Of a stretch of 47,782 nt of DNA, positions 5,496 to 35,140 are shown one piece after another. The stretch lies in the NCBI GenBank assembly GCA_964605545.1, contig CAZSCX010000002.1:1-47782 (forward strand), read 5' to 3'. The stretch is from an uncultured Gammaproteobacteria bacterium (GTDB taxonomy: Bacteria; Patescibacteriota; Microgenomatia; UBA12405). The position numbers and the translations under genes were made by a program. Each line of letters begins with the position of its first letter. The first letter of the stretch is position 1. Under the pieces are notes generated by a model. The model made no database searches. It was not told where the DNA came from and worked only from the letters and a program-made list of their open reading frames with translations.

Positions 5496-7606
5496 TAATT
5501 TATTTTTGAAATGATTGTAATTCTAGAACCGATAATGGGCAGAGGAATTATTTTTCCAATTAAGGGTAAATTTGAATCAAATTCCCAATTATAAAAAGCA
5601 GATAAATCTTTTTTGAAATAGTTAAAAGCGCTGTTTTTGGTTTTCCCGGCAATTTTTGATCGAACAACGTTGATATTCAAAAGAGGAGCAGCTTTACCAT
5701 CAATAATTAAATTGCCAGTAGCTTGTGATGAATCTATTTTTTCAACTTCCATTTTTAAATTAAAAATTAAATTGTTTTGGTCCCATTTTGATTTGTCGGG
5801 AGAATCAATAAGAGCAGAAATTATTTTATTTTTTTCGGTGGGAGAGAGAGCAAAAACAGTGACATTTGATTCGAGAGTGGCACTAAGTTGATCGGTTTGT
5901 TCATTGACATCTCGATTAAATTCAATTCTTTTCGTATCAGTTTGAATTGTATCCAAGAGGACACCGGAAAGGTTGCTGACATCATTTTGGATTTTTTGGT
6001 CGACTTCTTTTTGGATTTCTTCTTTTAATTTGGCTTCTAAACTAGTTTTGTCATTTTTACTGACAACTTTTACTTCTTCTTTGATACCGCCAGAAAAATC
6101 CAGTTCAACTTTGGCAATAATTAAATTTTCGGAAAAATCTTTGAAGGTTAATTTGGTGTCCTTGGTAATATTAAATTCAGGACCAATTTGGGAGGCGGTA
6201 ACAACTGTTTTGGTTTGACCAAATTTCATTATGCCTTCAGCAAAATCAGATGTAGAACCAGCAATTTGGATAGGAGTAAGAAGTTCAAATTGTTTTCCGT
6301 CGGCCGAGGTGAGAATAGCACCTTTGGGAATATTTTGAACCTTGTCTTGTTTATTATAAACAATAATACTGCCACGAGCTTTTTCACCAACTACTTGTTT
6401 ACCGGTAGTTTCAATTTCTCCATTTACTTTAATTTCAAAAGTCTTTACCGTGACAGGAATTTTTTTGTTATTTAAGTCAGATTCGGTAATTTGAGAATCA
6501 AGTGTAATAGGAATGGTAGCAGTAATTGGATATGGATTAAGATAGAGAGTAATATCGACCTGATTAAGCAAAAGGATAGCTAGAAATAAAAGGGGAATAA
6601 AAGCAATAGGCCAAAGAAAAGAAACTAATTTAAATTTTGGTAATTTAAACTTGGGAAAATGTGGAAGAATTATTTTTCTTTTTTTCTTCTCTACTTTAAC
6701 TTCTGAAAAACCAAAATTTTCCATAGGAACAGTATCAAAATTAGTTTCCGGAATTGGTTCTTCATTTTTTTCCGGTTCTAATTGTTCAGCTTCAATCTCT
6801 AATTTTTCTTCTGGCTCAGGCAATATTTCCTCTTCTTTTGTTTCTTCTTTGATCGGTTCTGGAATAGTCGAGCTGATATTACTACCAATAATTTGATAAT
6901 TAATAAAATCACTCCAAATTTTAGTTATATCTTCGATGCTGTAAAATTTTATTTCCGGAAGATGAAAGAAGATGTCACCTATTTTTTTGCCTATCCATGG
7001 GTAATTTTTAATATCTTCAAGAGGCATTTGTTGGGTATCACCAAAAAAGATCAAAACTGGTGGCAGAGCAGATTCAAGAGATAGGGTATTTAATTTATTT
7101 TCGATTGTTTTTGGCGAAAATCCATCTTCGAAAACTTGGGAAAAGCGTTCTTTAATTTTGCCAAAATAGACTAAGGACAGATTGAATTGATGTTGTTTAA
7201 GATTTATGAGAATGTAGCTGTTGAGATTTGATTCATCGATTGATTGATTTTCGACAAAGGCATCGTCGTTGCTAATAAAGCCTAGCGGTTTAAATTTAAG
7301 TTTTCTACATATTTTTTCGACTAAAGCAATTTTATCTTTGGAAATTTGACCATCGATATCAATCCAAAAAGGAGAAAGGATAAAGGCGGCTGATTCCGGT
7401 TCTTCTTCTTCGGTGATACCGGATTGGAGACTAGTTTCACTCAAAGAGGCGTCAACAGCAAAAACAAGAGAATCTTCATCGGCTACTTCATAATTTCTAG
7501 GCTTGCCAATGATAATCCGAGACGATTGGGTCTCGTCAAAGAGAACCAAAGAAACATTGACTTCTTCTTCATCAATTGAAACTAACCAATAATCATGGCT
7601 ATTCAT
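5495..7606 (-). CDS. 703-aa bitopic membrane protein of unknown function (cytoplasmic N-domain, acidic linker, one TM segment, beta-rich ectodomain)
   Basis: Long ORF coupled by TAATG overlaps to alaS upstream and the sortase downstream. It has an acidic EEILPEPEEKLEIEAEQLEPEKNEEP linker and the TM segment LVSFLWPIAFIPLLFLAILLL. I do not securely recognise the family. Confidence 0.8.
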   Translation of the reverse strand: MNSHDYWLVSIDEEEVNVSLVLFDETQSSRIIIGKPRNYEVADEDSLVFAVDASLSETSLQSGITEEEEPESAAFILSPFWIDIDGQISKDKIALVEKICRKLKFKPLGFISNDDAFVENQSIDESNLNSYILINLKQHQFNLSLVYFGKIKERFSQVFEDGFSPKTIENKLNTLSLESALPPVLIFFGDTQQMPLEDIKNYPWIGKKIGDIFFHLPEIKFYSIEDITKIWSDFINYQIIGSNISSTIPEPIKEETKEEEILPEPEEKLEIEAEQLEPEKNEEPIPETNFDTVPMENFGFSEVKVEKKKRKIILPHFPKFKLPKFKLVSFLWPIAFIPLLFLAILLLNQVDITLYLNPYPITATIPITLDSQITESDLNNKKIPVTVKTFEIKVNGEIETTGKQVVGEKARGSIIVYNKQDKVQNIPKGAILTSADGKQFELLTPIQIAGSTSDFAEGIMKFGQTKTVVTASQIGPEFNITKDTKLTFKDFSENLIIAKVELDFSGGIKEEVKVVSKNDKTSLEAKLKEEIQKEVDQKIQNDVSNLSGVLLDTIQTDTKRIEFNRDVNEQTDQLSATLESNVTVFALSPTEKNKIISALIDSPDKSKWDQNNLIFNLKMEVEKIDSSQATGNLIIDGKAAPLLNINVVRSKIAGKTKNSAFNYFKKDLSAFYNWEFDSNLPLIGKIIPLPIIGSRITIISKIN

Positions 7607-9276
7607 TATTTAAGGATAGCATAAATACGACGTTTTCCACTACCTGCCGACTCTTCTTTTTGAATTTTGAAAATTCCCAAGCTATTTGTATTGACAACAT
7701 GAGGACCGGTACATATTTCTTTACTAAAATCCCCAATAGTATAAACACTGACGATTTCAGGATATTTGTGACCAAAAAAAGCAAGAGCACCTGTTTTTTT
7801 GGCATCTTCTAAACTCATTTCTTCCTTTGATATTGGTAAATTTGATTTAATTACTTCATTTACAAGAGTTTCAATGGCACAAATCTGATCGGGATTCAAT
7901 TTTTGATCATAATTAAAGTCGAAACGAAGTCTTTCAGCAGTAATATTTGAACCAGCTTGTGAAACACTATTACCTAAAATTTGCCTCAATGCGGCGTGGA
8001 GAATATGAGTGGTAGTGTGATATTTAATTATGATTTCGGATGAATTTTCAAGACCACTTTTGAATTCCCCCACTTTTAGAGTTTTGGAAACTTCTTGGTG
8101 ATCTTTTAGGGCTTTTTCAAATTCATCATGATTAATTTTTTGACCGAGTTCTTCTTCAATTAATTCGAGTGGAAAACCAAAACTTTCATAAATTTTAAAT
8201 GCTTTAAAACCGTCAATATCTTTTGTTTTTCTGAGTTCTTTAAGACCTAGTTCCAAAGTTAATTTAAATTTATTTTCTTCGGCTTCCAAAATTTTTAGAA
8301 TATTTGGATTATTTAATTCTGGGTAAATACCAGCATAATTATCTTGATTATCGATAACTGATTGGGCAATTTCCAATAAAGAATTAACATTCAATTTTTT
8401 GGCAACACGCAAGGATTTACGAATTAAACGGCGTAAAACGTAACCGCGTTCTTTGTTACTGGGCTCGACTCCGTCGGCAATGATGAAAACAGAAGCCTTT
8501 ATATGATCGGCGATTAACCTCATCGACTTTTTGTCATCAATATATTTTTTGCCGCTTAATTGCTCAATTTTTTTGATAATCGGCAACCAAATATCAGTGA
8601 GATAATTATCGTCTAAGTGATTTAACATAGCGAGAGTGCGCTCGACACCCATACCTGTATCGACATTTTTGTAGCCCAAATCTTTATAATTTCCCTTGCC
8701 ATCGGTGTATTGATCCATAAAAACATCATTCCAAATTTCAACTAAATTTCCCTGTTTATCGGGAATAAACATTTCGGTATCAGGGCCGCAAGGACCATCA
8801 ATTCCTCCCCTCTCCCACCAATTATCAGATTTATCCAAAATTCGAATCCTATCATCACTAATTTCTAGGTTCTTCCAAATTTCTAAACTTTCTTTGTCGT
8901 CTTTGTAAACAGTAACATTAATAATATTTGGATTGTAATTTAAGACTTTGGTAAGAAATTCATACGACCAAAGAATTGTTTCTTTCTTAAAATAATCGTT
9001 TAAAGACCAGTTTCCCAACATTTCGAAAAAAGTATGATGGACGGTATCGCCTACGCTATCTATATCTCCTGTTCTAAGGCATTTTTGAACATTGACTAGT
9101 CTTTTTCCGAGGGGATGCTTCTCCCCCATTAGATAAGGGACAAGGGGGTGCATACCAGCGCTTATGAAAAGCGTTGAGGAGTCGTTGTCGGGAACTAAAG
9201 GAGATGAAGGAATTTCGACATGTTGTTTCTCGACAAAAAATTTAATATATTTTTCTTTTAATTCCCTCGCATTCAT
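7606..9276 (-). CDS. alaS: Alanine--tRNA ligase, compact 556-aa form (catalytic plus editing-type HxxxH region, no C-Ala domain)
   Basis: N-terminus MNARELKEKYIKFFVEKQHVEIPSSPLVP, FISAGMHP, and HTTTHILHAALRQILG (the editing/second-additional-domain HxxxH motif). Confidence 0.92.
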   Translation of the reverse strand: MNARELKEKYIKFFVEKQHVEIPSSPLVPDNDSSTLFISAGMHPLVPYLMGEKHPLGKRLVNVQKCLRTGDIDSVGDTVHHTFFEMLGNWSLNDYFKKETILWSYEFLTKVLNYNPNIINVTVYKDDKESLEIWKNLEISDDRIRILDKSDNWWERGGIDGPCGPDTEMFIPDKQGNLVEIWNDVFMDQYTDGKGNYKDLGYKNVDTGMGVERTLAMLNHLDDNYLTDIWLPIIKKIEQLSGKKYIDDKKSMRLIADHIKASVFIIADGVEPSNKERGYVLRRLIRKSLRVAKKLNVNSLLEIAQSVIDNQDNYAGIYPELNNPNILKILEAEENKFKLTLELGLKELRKTKDIDGFKAFKIYESFGFPLELIEEELGQKINHDEFEKALKDHQEVSKTLKVGEFKSGLENSSEIIIKYHTTTHILHAALRQILGNSVSQAGSNITAERLRFDFNYDQKLNPDQICAIETLVNEVIKSNLPISKEEMSLEDAKKTGALAFFGHKYPEIVSVYTIGDFSKEICTGPHVVNTNSLGIFKIQKEESAGSGKRRIYAILK

Positions 9277-30767: not shown

Positions 30768-31211
30768 TTATTTTACCCCAGTGGAACCCATTCCGCCACG
30801 GTTGGGATGGTGTTTAAAATTTTTTAATTCTTTAATATTAAAAATGTTATTTTTAATAAGCATAATTTGGCAGATGCGAGTGGCTTTTTCGATATGAACC
30901 GGATGGTCGGTGTAGTTGTAAGCAACAAAATGATATTCATCATTGTCGCCACAATAATCACGGTCGTAGACTCCAACACCATTTGCGGCCATTAAGCCTA
31001 ATTTGGAAGTTGAACTACGAGCAAATTGTAGAATAGCGTAACCTGCCGGTATTTCTATGGCTACATTGAGAGGAATAGGAAATATACTATGAGGGGGAAT
31101 ATCGACATCGATACGAGTATACATATCGGCGGCGACAGCACCACTGGTTTTAAAAACCGGTAAAGGGATGGTTTTGTCAAACCTTTTGAAATTGATGGAT
31201 ATGGTTTTCAT
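30768..31211 (-). CDS. dut: dUTP diphosphatase (trimeric dUTPase)
   Basis: PVFKTSGAVAADMY, GVGVYDRDYCG (motif 3), and the C-terminal RGGMGSTG (motif 5). Confidence 0.9.
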   Translation of the reverse strand: MKTISINFKRFDKTIPLPVFKTSGAVAADMYTRIDVDIPPHSIFPIPLNVAIEIPAGYAILQFARSSTSKLGLMAANGVGVYDRDYCGDNDEYHFVAYNYTDHPVHIEKATRICQIMLIKNNIFNIKELKNFKHHPNRGGMGSTGVK

Positions 31212-34143
31212 CTTTACACTTTTCCCCTATTTGATTAAATTCTAAATTAAGAATTCTATTATAAACATCTTTGATCAAAATTTTTAAATCAGATAAATCT
31301 TTTTCTTTTATTTCAATATTTTTCCTTTTGGTTTTTTTGATGTAATCGAGAACCCCTGAATTTATCTTATATTTAAATTGAGGACAATTGTCGGCTAAAA
31401 TTTTATAAAACAATATTTGTCTTTGATAATCATCATCGTTGTCACGTTTATCGGGATTGCCGGTTTTAAAATCAACAGCAATTGCGTGAAGATCTTTTTG
31501 AATTTCAATTTTGTCGATATTGCCGGTAATAGGAATATTGTCCAAATGAACATTAAAAGGTTTAAAACTAAATTCAGAAAGATTTTCGTTTTTAAAGGTG
31601 TCGAGGTATTTATCATAATAAAGAGATAGTTCGTCAAGGCCATTGGCCAATAAATTTTGAAATTCTTTTTTAATTAAATTTTCTTGTTTTAAATGTTTGG
31701 TAAAGGATTCTAAAAATTTCTTTTTGGATAAATTATTTTTTAGCAAATCAGAGAGAGCGGCGTGAACAGCGGTACCGTAAGAGGCATATTTATTTTTGGT
31801 TTGAGGAATTTTTAAAATTGTTTTGTAAAAAAAACAGAGAGGACATTTGAGATAAGAATTTAAATTGGTGGGGCTTAAAACATAATTTTCTTTTAAATAA
31901 GTTTTAAGATATTTTTCAAAATCGTTATCAGAAATTATTTGGGGATATTTTTGAAAATTAAAAAGAAGAGCCTTTCTGCCAAGCTCTGAAGAGGAAATAA
32001 TATTATTGATTAATTCCGGTTTAATTTCTGATAAAAATTGTGAAGGGGTAGTGGCACCATAAGATAAAAATAAATCTTTTTTGGCTCGGGTTAGAGCAAC
32101 ATAAAAAAGACGGCGGTCTTCTTCACTTAAATCATTTAAATCCTTATTGATTTCATATTTTAAAATACCCAAGGGTAGACGTAAATTATTATGATCACGA
32201 CTTTCACCCCAGCGAGCAGAAATAGTATTGATTACAAAAACATATTCGAATTCCAAACCCTTGGCCTTGTGAATTGTCATTAAATTGATTGAGTCGTTTA
32301 AGGTAATATCGGATTCGATTTCCAGGGGAATATTATTTTCGGAAAAGAGATCGAGGCGATAAATAAAATCTTTTAAATTAATATTTTTTTCGTAAGATAA
32401 TTTTTTGAGATGGTCATAAAAGGCATTAAATTTTTGAAGTAAATCAAAATTTTTACTTTTAATTATTTGTTTTAAAATTTTAAATTTGCGAATAATTTTA
32501 TTAAAAGCTTTATTTAAATTATAATTTTCTAAATATATTTTGGCTTTAGCAATTCTTTTTTCAAATTTTTTTATTTTTGAACAAGTTTTTCCGTATTTAT
32601 AGAAATCGTATAATTCCCGTTCTTTTAAGCCGATAAAATCAAAAGCGAGTATGGGAAAAAGTAATTCACCAGATGGGTTGTTAATATATTTTAAAAGAGT
32701 GATGAGTTGTTTAATTTTGATATCCGATAAAATATTATTGCCATTACTTAGGGTATATTTTATATTTAATTTTTCCAATAAAGGCAGCAAATCCAAAACA
32801 TCAGTATTGTTTCTGTAAATAACAGCGATTTCTTTTGGACTAACTTTTTGTTTAATTAACTCATGTATTTTTTGGGCGACAAAATAGTTTTCTTCCAGTT
32901 TACTTGATGAAGAAAATATGGTTATTGGTTTACTTGGATCATCAATGGCTGATTTTAGTGATTTGTCGATATCGGTTAAAAAGCCGGTGATACGATTTTT
33001 GTTTTTTTCGATGACACATTGAGAGCTGTCGAGAATGGTTTGGTGAGAGCGATAATTATTGTTGAGAGTAATTACTTTGGGTTTATATTTTTGGACAAAT
33101 TCATAAATATTTTCGAGATTGGCACCTTGAAATCTAAAAATTGATTGATCGTCGTCGCCGACAACAAAAAGATTTGGGATGTCGTCATTTTTGGTTAAAA
33201 GATTTAAAATTTCATTTTGAGAGGAATTGGCATCCTGATATTCGTCAACTAAAATATATTGGTATTTCTCCTGATAATCAAAAAGTAAATCAGCATCTTC
33301 GTTGAAAGAACGAATGGCAAAAAGAATTTGATCTTCGTAATCGTAACGATTAATTTCACTTAATATTTTTTGATATTTTTGATAGATTTTTTGAAGCTCA
33401 AATTGTTTGGGGATATTTTTTTCCAAATCCAAATAAAATTTTAATAAAGCATTCTTAAAATTAATTAAGGGATTTTTGGCCTTTCCAACATCAAAGACTC
33501 CTTGATCAAGTTGTATTTTTTTAAATTTTAGATAATTTAAAATTTCACTGTCGGCAAATTTTAAAATTTCGTTAAAAATCTCCAATGTTTCTTTGGGATG
33601 GGTTTTCAATTTTAAAAATAAATTGGTGGATTTTTTTAAAAATTCTTTTTGAATATCAATTAATTCAAATAATTTTTCCGGACTAATGTTTTCTCTTTTT
33701 AGAGTTTTAATATTATTGATTAAATCGTTTTGATAAAAATAGTTGTCACCCCAAGGTTTGAGAGGAGAATCATGAGGTAACTCATCGATAAGAGAGATAA
33801 TGATTTCCAGTCTTTCCAAATCGTCTAAGAGTTCAATATTGATTGCATTATTTTTGATAACTTCGGAGCAAAAAGAATGAAAGGTGTGAATACGGATTTT
33901 GTAGCCATCGGGACCGATGTATTTGACGAGACGGTCACGCATGTTTTTGACGGCATTGTTGGTAAAAGATAGACAGAGAATACTTTCGGGAGAAGTATCG
34001 GTTTTTGTCAAAATATGGGCAATCCTAGCGGCAATTGTTTGAGTTTTGCCGGTACCGGCACCGGCGAGTACCAAAACCGGACCATCAATAGCCTCCACAG
34101 CCTGAAGCTGTTTTGGATTGAGATTTTTTAGATATTCCGCCAT
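31177..34143 (-). CDS. UvrD/PcrA-type SF1 helicase fused to a C-terminal RecB/Cas4-like PD-(D/E)XK nuclease domain (988 aa)
   Basis: N-terminus LNPKQLQAVEAIDGPVLVLAGAGTGKT, DEYQD, and the later helicase motif VALTRAK. The C-terminal 250 aa carry SYLKCPLCFFYK, GNIDKIE...VDFKTG and YQRQILFYKIL (nuclease motifs I-III plus QxxxY). Confidence 0.88.
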   Translation of the reverse strand: MAEYLKNLNPKQLQAVEAIDGPVLVLAGAGTGKTQTIAARIAHILTKTDTSPESILCLSFTNNAVKNMRDRLVKYIGPDGYKIRIHTFHSFCSEVIKNNAINIELLDDLERLEIIISLIDELPHDSPLKPWGDNYFYQNDLINNIKTLKRENISPEKLFELIDIQKEFLKKSTNLFLKLKTHPKETLEIFNEILKFADSEILNYLKFKKIQLDQGVFDVGKAKNPLINFKNALLKFYLDLEKNIPKQFELQKIYQKYQKILSEINRYDYEDQILFAIRSFNEDADLLFDYQEKYQYILVDEYQDANSSQNEILNLLTKNDDIPNLFVVGDDDQSIFRFQGANLENIYEFVQKYKPKVITLNNNYRSHQTILDSSQCVIEKNKNRITGFLTDIDKSLKSAIDDPSKPITIFSSSSKLEENYFVAQKIHELIKQKVSPKEIAVIYRNNTDVLDLLPLLEKLNIKYTLSNGNNILSDIKIKQLITLLKYINNPSGELLFPILAFDFIGLKERELYDFYKYGKTCSKIKKFEKRIAKAKIYLENYNLNKAFNKIIRKFKILKQIIKSKNFDLLQKFNAFYDHLKKLSYEKNINLKDFIYRLDLFSENNIPLEIESDITLNDSINLMTIHKAKGLEFEYVFVINTISARWGESRDHNNLRLPLGILKYEINKDLNDLSEEDRRLFYVALTRAKKDLFLSYGATTPSQFLSEIKPELINNIISSSELGRKALLFNFQKYPQIISDNDFEKYLKTYLKENYVLSPTNLNSYLKCPLCFFYKTILKIPQTKNKYASYGTAVHAALSDLLKNNLSKKKFLESFTKHLKQENLIKKEFQNLLANGLDELSLYYDKYLDTFKNENLSEFSFKPFNVHLDNIPITGNIDKIEIQKDLHAIAVDFKTGNPDKRDNDDDYQRQILFYKILADNCPQFKYKINSGVLDYIKKTKRKNIEIKEKDLSDLKILIKDVYNRILNLEFNQIGEKCKDENHIHQFQKV

Positions 34144-34152
34144 TACTTTATT

Positions 34153-34332
34153 TTAGCAAGTTATTGATGTGGACTTCAAAACTCTGGACTTTATTAAAAA
34201 GTTTTTCATTTCTTCTGGAGTCATTTTGTGCATTCTTCTCTCAAGATCCATATATTCAGGGTTGCATCCTTCGCACTCTGACTGACAACCATTACAATTA
34301 TCCCTTTCTAAACACTTTTCATGCTTCATCAT
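34153..34332 (-). CDS. Untracked 59-codon cysteine-rich ORF (MMKHEKCLERDNCNGCQSECEGCNPEYMDLERRMHKMTPEEMKNFLIKSRVLKSTSITC)
   Basis: It is one codon below the apparent 60-aa track cutoff. GGAGGTG (34345-34339) lies 6 nt upstream of the ATG, and the TAA stop is 9 nt before the helicase-nuclease ATG. The Cys pattern is Cx5CxxCxxxCxxC. The opposing 72-aa plus-strand ORF has no comparable signals. Confidence 0.55.
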   Translation of the reverse strand: MMKHEKCLERDNCNGCQSECEGCNPEYMDLERRMHKMTPEEMKNFLIKSRVLKSTSITC

Positions 34333-34516: not shown

Positions 34517-35140
34517 ATGTTACCAAAAAGAAAATTTGTCCGATGGCAAGGATATGATTATTCCCAATCGGGATATTATTTTGTAACAATTTGTACCCAA
34601 AACCGAAAATGTATGTTTATTGATTCCGTAGGGGCGGACCGATGTGTCCGCCCGTCGATGGAATTGACGAATCCATGTGTCCGCCCGTCGATGGAAACAA
34701 ATCATTGCCCGTCGATGGAAAATATTCACACAAAAACAAAATTAAATGATGTAGGCAAAATGATTGATTATTGGTGGAATGAATTACCAAAACATTTTGA
34801 AAACATTGAATTGGATGATTATGTAATAATGCCAAACCATATACACGCAATAATTATTATTCGTAATGATTCATGCGGGCGGACACATCCGAATGTATGC
34901 GGGGCGACACATCGGTCGCCCCCTACGACGTTGGGTAATATAATTCAATGGTTTAAAACGATGGCGACAAATGAATATATTCGAAATGTAAAAACAAAAA
35001 AATGGCCAATATTTGTAAAACGAATATTCCAAATAAATTATTATGAACACGTGATTAAATCCGAAAAAAGATATTTGATTATAAAAAATTATATAAAAAA
35101 TAATCCTGTAAATTGGGAAAACGATATTTTATTTCAATAA
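34517..35140 (+). CDS. IS200/IS605-type Y1 (HUH) transposase-like protein, RAYT-like, single copy without recognisable IS ends
   Basis: GYDYSQSGYYFVTICTQNRKCMF, the HUH motif IMPNHIHAIIII, TLGNIIQWFKTMATNEY, and the catalytic-Tyr region QINYYEHVI. The track start at 34502 is TTG; ATG 34517 lies 14 nt after a TACAAT box (34497-34502). Confidence 0.85.
   Translation: MLPKRKFVRWQGYDYSQSGYYFVTICTQNRKCMFIDSVGADRCVRPSMELTNPCVRPSMETNHCPSMENIHTKTKLNDVGKMIDYWWNELPKHFENIELDDYVIMPNHIHAIIIIRNDSCGRTHPNVCGATHRSPPTTLGNIIQWFKTMATNEYIRNVKTKKWPIFVKRIFQINYYEHVIKSEKRYLIIKNYIKNNPVNWENDILFQ
34628..34926. repeat. GC-rich hairpins, an inverted repeat pair and 33/24-bp tandem repeats embedded in frame in the transposase-like ORF
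   Basis: Hairpin L is GGGCGGAC-cgatgt-GTCCGCCC (34632-34653). Hairpin R is GGGGCGAC-acatcg-GTCGCCCC (34901-34922). The 26-nt blocks 34628-34653 and 34901-34926 are inverted copies (22/26). ATGTGTCCGCCCGTCGATGGAA occurs at 34642 and 34675, GCCCGTCGATGGAA occurs again at 34707, and GGGCGGACACAT occurs at 34877. Confidence 0.9.

Follow-up and report, generated by a model that had tools for sequence, protein, structure and literature searches.

REP hairpins carried in frame within a putative REP-associated tyrosine transposase gene of a low-GC genome fragment

Repetitive extragenic palindromes (REPs) inside the gene of the associated transposase were described for the TnpA-REP proteins of subclass 2.4 (Quentin, Siguier, Chandler and Fichant 2018, BMC Genomics 19:475, PMC6006769), a subclass that equals group 4 of the REP-associated tyrosine transposases (RAYTs) of Bertels et al. 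2017 (PMC5581495). Subclass 2.4 proteins have the motifs NH[IFV]H, WQ and YIxNNP, a length of ~194 aa and a variable, repeat-built insertion between strand β3 and helix αC, and REPs lie near most of their genes (PMC6006769); among the REPs in the supplement of that paper are GTAGGGGCGGACCTATGTGTCCGCCC and close variants, and the stem GTAGGGGCGGAC...GTCCGCCC is listed there for Nitrosococcus oceani and Desulfomonile tiedjei. What defines the canonical REP architecture is a GC palindrome with the tetranucleotide GT[AG]G at its foot (PMC3733652, PMC6006769), and intragenic GTAG/CGTC REPs have been found in frame in many unrelated genes, especially those of replication and repair (Di Nocera et al. 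2013, PMC3733652). For the E. coli TnpA-REP and its REPtron (PDB 4ER8, Messing et al. 2012, PMC3479197; Corneloup et al. 2021, PMC8266576), contacts with GTAG are made by W94, Q95, W99, E100, H101 and R104 (PMC6006769), and Corneloup et al. reported that TnpA-REPs co-evolve with their REPs and implicated GTAG in the choice of the CT cleavage site. Here we describe a gene in a 47,782-nt stretch of contig CAZSCX010000002.1 (assembly GCA_964605545.1; this whole stretch is hereafter the window) that very probably encodes a RAYT of subclass 2.4, or group 4, and carries cognate REP copies and REP fragments in frame in two surface loops.

The window holds two full REPs, REP1 and REP2, plus fragments, and all of these copies are intragenic (Table 1). 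REP1 (full sequence GTAGGGGCGGACCGATGTGTCCGCCC) contains the hairpin GGGCGGAC-cgatgt-GTCCGCCC at 34632–34653, and REP2 (full minus-strand sequence GTAGGGGGCGACCGATGTGTCGCCCC) the hairpin GGGGCGAC-acatcg-GTCGCCCC at 34901–34922; directly 5′ of both, each on its own strand, stands a GTAG that the original prediction for this DNA had missed, and with a GT[AG]G at the foot of a GC-rich palindrome of 20–40 nt both copies have the canonical REP form. The blocks around the two hairpins are inverted copies of one another, with 28-nt arms at 34627–34654 and 34900–34927 that are 86% complementary. Beside REP1 there are direct repeats with a 33-nt period (34635–34663 against 34668–34696, 90% identical), in which the REP 3′ arm followed by GTCGATGGAA occurs in two copies (34642–34663 and 34675–34696) and a third GCCCGTCGATGGAA lies at 34707–34720; this 14-mer is thus found three times (at 34650, 34683 and 34707), compared with an expectation of 0.13 and a triple occurrence in 0 of 100 shuffles. 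A complementary copy, GGGCGGACACAT, stands at 34877, and REP1, REP2 and the repeats are all in frame within the 207-aa open reading frame (ORF).

The GC content of the window is 34.5%, and all four exact GGGCGGAC 8-mers in it fall inside the 624-nt gene. Apart from REP1 and REP2, the 47,782 nt contain no GC hairpin with a GT[AG]G foot and no perfect GC-rich hairpin whose stem reaches 8 bp, and searches of the window for further copies outside the gene (the 8-mer with up to one mismatch, the 14-mer with up to two mismatches, footed hairpins, and perfect GC stems of at least 8 bp) returned none. Single-stranded DNA folding of 34610–34940 gave z = −4.5 against dinucleotide shuffles, and in the predicted minimum-energy fold REP1 is paired with REP2 across 245 nt. 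When the whole window was scanned against Rfam, no family reached its gathering threshold, so the hairpins correspond to no curated RNA element, and ARAGORN found no tRNA in the window; AT-rich long inverted repeats flanking the gene (74–75% complementary) were judged to be chance matches in AT-rich DNA. The statements of the original prediction about the sequence (hairpins, inverted blocks, direct repeats, the complementary copy, the reading frame and the contrast in GC) were all reproduced on recomputation.

The product of the ORF at 34517–35140 is, to judge from profile matches and a predicted fold, a Y1/HUH enzyme of the RAYT kind. We found 4637 homologues of the protein, and a profile built from 47 of them had the E. 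coli TnpA-REP (4ER8) as its sole sequence match in the PDB. The AlphaFold2 model has a core with a predicted local distance difference test score (pLDDT) above 90, and Foldseek ranks 1–30 were all Y1 transposases (IS608, ISDra2, IS200 and TnpA-REP 4ER8), with a probability of 1.00 and E-values down to 6.5e-6. The protein also matched the NCBIfam equivalog model REP_Tyr_transpos (NF047646), over residues 95–198 only and with a score below its cut-off (E = 6.9e-12, 45.5 bits vs 80), so that by that model it is a relative and not an equivalog. The invariance of residues in the HUH and tyrosine motifs (Table 1) was judged in the 47-sequence protein alignment. At the positions equivalent to the GTAG contacts of the E. 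coli enzyme the protein reads F-Q-Y-E-H-K, with two conservative substitutions; FQ in place of WQ is found in several close homologues as well, and it is a conservative variant of the conserved motif that affects no catalytic residue. These matches agree with the IS200/RAYT-like Y1/HUH class originally assigned to the gene, and the accompanying suggestion that its REP-like hairpins are candidate substrates of their own enzyme class is supported by their canonical REP architecture, GTAG foot included.

Table 1. Features of the RAYT-like gene and of the REP-derived DNA within it (positions are those of the window).
Feature	Coordinates	Strand	Remarks
RAYT / TnpA-REP-like Y1 HUH gene (putative)	34517..35140	+	ORF, 207 aa, stop codon included
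REP1: GTAG GGGCGGAC CGATGT GTCCGCCC, 8-bp stem, 6-nt loop	34628..34653	+	encodes VGADRCVRP; site 1, after strand β1
Residues 38–72, predicted disordered loop = REP1 + repeat block	34628..34732	+	AlphaFold2 pLDDT <50, no secondary structure
Tandem partial-REP repeats	34635..34720	+	encode CVRPSME / CVRPSME / CPSME
HUH motif codons (N107 H108 I109 H110)	34835..34846	+	between the two REPs; H108, H110 invariant in alignment
Residues 120–135, second predicted disordered loop = site-2 REP DNA	34874..34921	+	AlphaFold2 pLDDT <50, no secondary structure
Partial REP, + strand GGGCGGACACATCC = complement of REP1 3′ arm and loop	34877..34890	-	without complete second arm or CTAC
REP2: minus strand GTAG GGGGCGAC CGATGT GTCGCCCC	34901..34926	-	+ strand encodes GATHRSPPT; site 2, directly before helix αC
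FQINYYEHVIK, counterpart of GTAG-contacting WQ..(W/Y)EH..R	35027..35059	+	alignment to 4ER8 residues 90–123
Catalytic tyrosine motif YIKNNP (residues 192–197, Y192)	35090..35107	+	Y192, N196 invariant; I193, P197 nearly so

For a survey of relatives, the DNA of 80 metagenomic homologues was scanned for footed hairpins, with counts made on 83 loci; at 79 loci the hairpins were assigned by protein landmarks to site 1 (between β1 and HUH) or site 2 (between HUH and αC). At least one footed hairpin lies inside the ORF at 76 of the 83 loci. Site 2 holds GTAG hairpins in 70 of 79 relatives (~89%), which come from many phyla, and in 45 of these 70 as an inverted '+-' pair. Hairpins at site 1 were found in 7 of 79 and elsewhere in the ORFs there were nine hairpins only, while both sites are empty in 8 of 79 relatives and a single orientation is present in others; a further 82 hairpins lie within 300 nt of the gene, many relatives having REPs that flank it immediately. 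The layout was also tallied from peptide patterns among the 120 best protein hits, 110 of them analysable: the canonical layout, with site 1 empty and '+-' at site 2, accounts for 52 of the 110, the split layout of the window ('+' at site 1, '-' at site 2) for 11, mostly the closest relatives, and the reverse split for at least two. The split pair of the window flanks 245 nt encoding αA-β2-β3/HUH.

Across these homologues the frame of the + copies is the one for VGA....P in 67 of 70 cases, as expected from the TAG stop that GTAG brings into one alternative frame, and the − orientation, for which there are two main frames, yields unrelated peptides, of GQPQGIAPT type (29) and GEHTGSPL type (42). 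There are 16 different perfect stems among 61 distinct hairpin sequences; stem pairs 9–22, 10–21 and 11–20 each show 21–27 double (compensatory) changes, and the GGGC/GCCC base and the loop ends are constant. The recurrent peptides VGADRCVRP and GRTHRSAPT at sites 1 and 2 come from the same element translated on one strand or the other, and in two homologous proteins (P0004 and P0019) the peptides of the two orientations have traded places in comparison with the window. That the stretch between the REPs had been inverted was considered as the cause of this swap and was rejected, the intervening coding sequence being collinear in all homologues. The 26-nt REP1 is identical in four related loci (L001, L002, L003 and L205), including genes whose proteins share only 47% identity with the window protein. 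Based on the occurrence of both orientations and several frames, the compensatory stems, and an identical REP at 47% protein identity, the constraint is on a DNA or RNA hairpin, and it is this hairpin rather than the peptide that is conserved. The original prediction had proposed that homologues be compared for palindrome and peptide, and what the homologues keep is the DNA palindrome and not the peptide: its stems change in a compensatory way, and it occurs in both orientations and several frames; conservation at the amino-acid level alone, with synonymous changes breaking the stems, was not the pattern among the homologues.

The two low-confidence stretches of the AlphaFold2 model coincide exactly with the REP-derived DNA, and the first of them, residues 38–72, is missing from most homologues. 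We used a JGI contig with a ~97%-identical gene (L001) as the reference for selection and for indels. Outside the REP zones the nucleotide differences between the window and L001 genes number 12 synonymous and 2 non-synonymous, with both of the non-synonymous ones in one codon (pN/pS ~0.04), and the two genomes are 14% divergent at synonymous sites. At site 1 L001 has exactly one 33-nt unit fewer than the window, and at site 2 the number and order of REP units differ, with both genes remaining in frame. The comparison with L001 thus indicates a gene kept by selection in which the REP zones are in-frame indel hotspots: REP units are gained or lost there without a frameshift, while purifying selection acts strongly on the remainder of the protein. 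A suspected N-terminal truncation of the L001 gene was rejected, as the DNA has an intact 212-aa ORF and the called start MENIH is a gene-calling choice. The stem variants GGGCGGAC and GGGGCGAC are present in both the window (34877–34926) and L001, in swapped order among the site-2 units, which looks like recombination between units and not point mutation. Several earlier suggestions gain from these comparisons: the N-proximal block had been read as an insertion between β1 and the next helix, and it is indeed missing in most homologues and predicted to be disordered, while both 'hairpin invasion tolerated in loops' and a 'recombination/indel hotspot' have direct support, the one from the predicted disordered loops and in-frame REP zones and the other from the L001 unit indels and rearrangements.

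Outside these genes, GGGCGGAC-N6-GTCCGCCC was found in GTDB genomes at 120 loci or more in many phyla, and among the matches listed 90 of 134 hairpins have a GT[AG]G foot and 2 only lie in RAYT-like ORFs. At 31 loci there are perfect REPs both inside and outside the RAYT-like gene, and in 21 of the 31 the 8-nt stem is identical; permuting the loci gave 5.9 ± 1.9 stem matches, and 0 of 2000 permutations reached 21, which identifies the in-gene REPs as part of the local REP population. No refuting outcome named in the original prediction was observed; one of these, a lack of further copies in the genome, was checked over the 47.8 kb of the window, where no copy lies outside the gene. A general absence of extragenic REPs from genomes of the candidate phyla radiation was considered and rejected, since one locus of Candidatus Doudnabacteria (L019) has an intergenic inverted REP doublet (7557–7625), with its feet inward (..GTCCGCCCCTAC ... 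GTAGGGGTTGAC..) and downstream of a CTP synthase gene.

The reading that we favour is that of a subclass 2.4 RAYT with cognate REP copies and fragments in two loops. The usual layout in the family is two inverted REPs, first + and then −, in the stretch from the HUH strand to helix αC, and in this lineage the pair is split, with the + copy after β1 and the − copy just before αC. The copies may have entered and been renewed through the enzyme's own single-strand cleave-and-join activity near its own gene, or through gene conversion; the survivors would be in-frame, stop-free placements in tolerant loops, and partial REP arms that slipped or exchanged unequally may have given rise to the 33-nt repeats. 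A number of points weigh against this reading. The protein on its own scores under the curated cut-off of NCBIfam REP_Tyr_transpos (45.5 vs 80 bits) and under the gathering cut-off of Pfam PF01797 Y1_Tnp (14.4 vs 23 bits), although these low scores are accounted for by the two REP inserts, which split the Y1 domain, and a precomputed PF01797 match is present in many homologues. There are W-to-F and R-to-K changes at residues equivalent to 4ER8 GTAG contacts, and we found no activity data for subclass 2.4 enzymes in the literature examined. As the covariation set was chosen by the hairpin scan, its 98.6% pairing is partly circular, although the diversity of the matched arms is not. Finally, no extragenic REP was found in the 47.8-kb window, nor in L002, L204, L205, L206 and L207, related low-GC loci in which 10 kb on either side, or less at contig ends, was searched; with the window, this search covered ~141 kb of genomes of 34–44% GC. 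The usual 'REPtron', with flanking REPs and an extragenic exchange population, is therefore not seen here, and a purely passive renewal of the in-gene copies becomes harder to explain.

The persistence of perfect 8-bp GC stems in genomes of this composition, with no extragenic REP over those ~141 kb, speaks for a different view, in which selection maintains the in-gene REP pair as a cis-acting element, either an autoregulatory site on the gene or its mRNA or a protected 'master copy'. We regard this as unlikely. In its favour, the same site is occupied in 70 of 79 relatives of many phyla, one + and one − copy are retained in the commonest layouts, also where the pair is split (52 canonical and 11 split of 110), the predicted single-stranded fold pairs REP1 with REP2 across the 245 nt, and the in-gene REPs match the local REP population. 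However, gene conversion predicts the match with extragenic REPs equally well, unit number and order differ at 14% synonymous divergence, which looks more like turnover than a fixed structure, the 8 of 79 relatives are hairpin-free at both sites and others have one orientation only, and Quentin et al. (PMC6006769) deemed the loop peripheral and probably neutral. In the 'master copy' variant, REP and enzyme would be co-inherited and the in-gene copy would seed extragenic REPs; the selected-element view as a whole overlaps with the explanation favoured above and is not exclusive of it. A narrower proposal, which we find rather doubtful, is that in REP-poor, small, AT-rich genomes the in-gene inverted pair is the selected core of a self-contained REP-RAYT unit, again as a master copy or an autoregulatory site. 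A functional in-gene pair would best explain perfect GC stems that last in an AT-rich genome with no nearby extragenic copies, and, were the proposal true, the split layout that brackets the HUH-coding segment would be a functional variant.

Two other explanations have far less in their favour. If functional peptide motifs (VGAD..VRP and G.TH.SAPT) were what is conserved, with the DNA palindromy as a by-product, one could point to the Pro and Thr just before αC (..APT LG.II), which are nearly invariant in the protein alignment, and to the + orientation being in one frame in 67 of 70; but that frame bias is explained by the TAG stop of GTAG in one other frame, the − orientation gives unrelated peptides from two main frames, either orientation occurs at either site, the stems covary, identical GTAG-footed hairpins lie outside genes in many genomes and the segments are predicted to be disordered, so that this explanation is extremely improbable and already contradicted by the present data. 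It is very unlikely as well that a Rickettsia-like palindromic miniature element with no relation to the enzyme landed in the gene by chance or in a recent invasion, given that every copy in the window lies in one gene, that the same two loops are occupied in relatives across phyla, and that the copies have the exact architecture recognised by RAYTs, a GTAG foot and then a hairpin. In favour of invasion, the repeat zones are fluid and in-frame REPs are known in many unrelated genes, especially those of replication and repair (PMC3733652).

The loci of relatives showed further peculiarities in their REPs. In L002 (10001–10642) and L205 (10001–10663) the RAYT homologue sits at the same locus, just upstream of convergently oriented rplL-rplJ, and in both the REP orientations are swapped relative to the window; L002 also has a reverse-oriented site-1 copy whose foot, GTAC, is degenerate, together with a duplicated partial arm (AAAATAGGGCGGA, two copies). 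In L186, GTAG REPs recur head to tail every 39 nt directly upstream of the RAYT homologue (35–337), at least eight of them in an unusually regular tandem array, and four more lie downstream (990–1166). Upstream of the homologue in L148 (1–355), two REPs alternate with a 91-nt period, with stems GGGCACAC on the + strand and a GGGCGGAC variant with an extra base on the − strand, and L146 (2969–10752) has several distinct REP families in 11 kb around one RAYT homologue, 3-nt-loop types (GTAGGGGCGGATTGAATCCGCCC, GTAGGGGCAGGTTTCAAACCTGCCC) standing beside the in-gene 6-nt-loop type.

On a Patescibacteria contig (L207, 15327–16700), a bAvd-like gene adjoins a reverse transcriptase gene (RVT_1) ~8 kb from the RAYT homologue, an arrangement that resembles a diversity-generating retroelement, and on a Daviesbacteria contig (L206, 10929–14066) an FtsH gene split by a LAGLIDADG-domain intein lies two genes downstream of the RAYT homologue. 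In the window itself, the RAYT-like gene is the sole + strand ORF of at least 150 aa amid 31 minus-strand ORFs over ~44 kb (3261–47553); even so, nearly all of this stretch has a positive + strand GC skew, and the AT skew reaches 0.24–0.26 at 41–46 kb. Between the RAYT-like gene and an ORF for a UvrD/PcrA-like helicase (988 aa, 31177–34143) there is a 59-aa Cys-rich ORF (..CNGCQSECEGC..) on the − strand at 34153–34332.

There is little here that is new in principle, but the window presents the trait in a clear form, a low-GC fragment whose REPs lie only inside the enzyme's own gene, and the survey quantifies it in terms of loop occupancy, orientations, frames, the match with local REPs, and rapid in-frame indels in the REP zones of a protein that purifying selection maintains. 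The case is relevant to the question of why RAYTs, once domesticated, have stayed together with their REPs, and it offers a compact system for asking whether in-gene REPs are neutral passengers or functional sites. For annotation, the inserts drop real RAYTs under Pfam and NCBIfam cut-offs, and the recurrent 'motifs' VGADxCVRP and GRTHRSAPT are translated REPs.

When set against the described systems, the window gene is closest in kind to subclass 2.4, an assignment suggested by its motifs, its REP type and the in-gene REP trait. The window's NHIH (107–110) and YIKNNP (192–197) fit NH[IFV]H and YIxNNP, there is a repeat-built insertion with in-frame REPs between HUH and αC (34877–34926), and the GT[AG]G-footed REPs are of the 'long' type, with three G-C pairs at the stem base and the same stem; unlike the published members, however, it has one REP between β1 and αA, no GT[AG]G REPs within 1000 nt of the gene or elsewhere in the window, FQ in place of WQ, and a host that, from the closest named homologues, is probably low-GC and Patescibacteria-like, not of the Cyanobacteria or Bacteroidetes. 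With the E. coli TnpA-REP it shares the Y1 HUH fold, predicted here, and a GTAG at the foot of the REP hairpin, which the E. coli enzyme recognises, but that enzyme belongs to subclass 2.2, its REPs are imperfect, bulged and flank the gene rather than lying inside it, and sequence identity is only ~16%. REPINs are inverted REP doublets (Bertels and Rainey), and in most relatives the in-gene pairs are likewise two inverted REPs in a compact doublet with short spacing, whereas the window copies stand 245 nt apart with coding sequence between them and do not qualify as a REPIN. The palindromic elements of Rickettsia are in-frame insertions in many unrelated ORFs, and these, like the intragenic REPs of Di Nocera et al., are short palindromic repeats tolerated in frame in functional coding genes; they are scattered, however, whereas the gene that carries REPs here presumably encodes their cognate enzyme, and relatives from different phyla share the insertion sites. 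Because the in-gene REPs of subclass 2.4 were published in 2018 (PMC6006769), the window gene is a new example of a published arrangement and not a new phenomenon, with local departures in its site-1 REP, its freedom from flanking REPs and its FQ variant.

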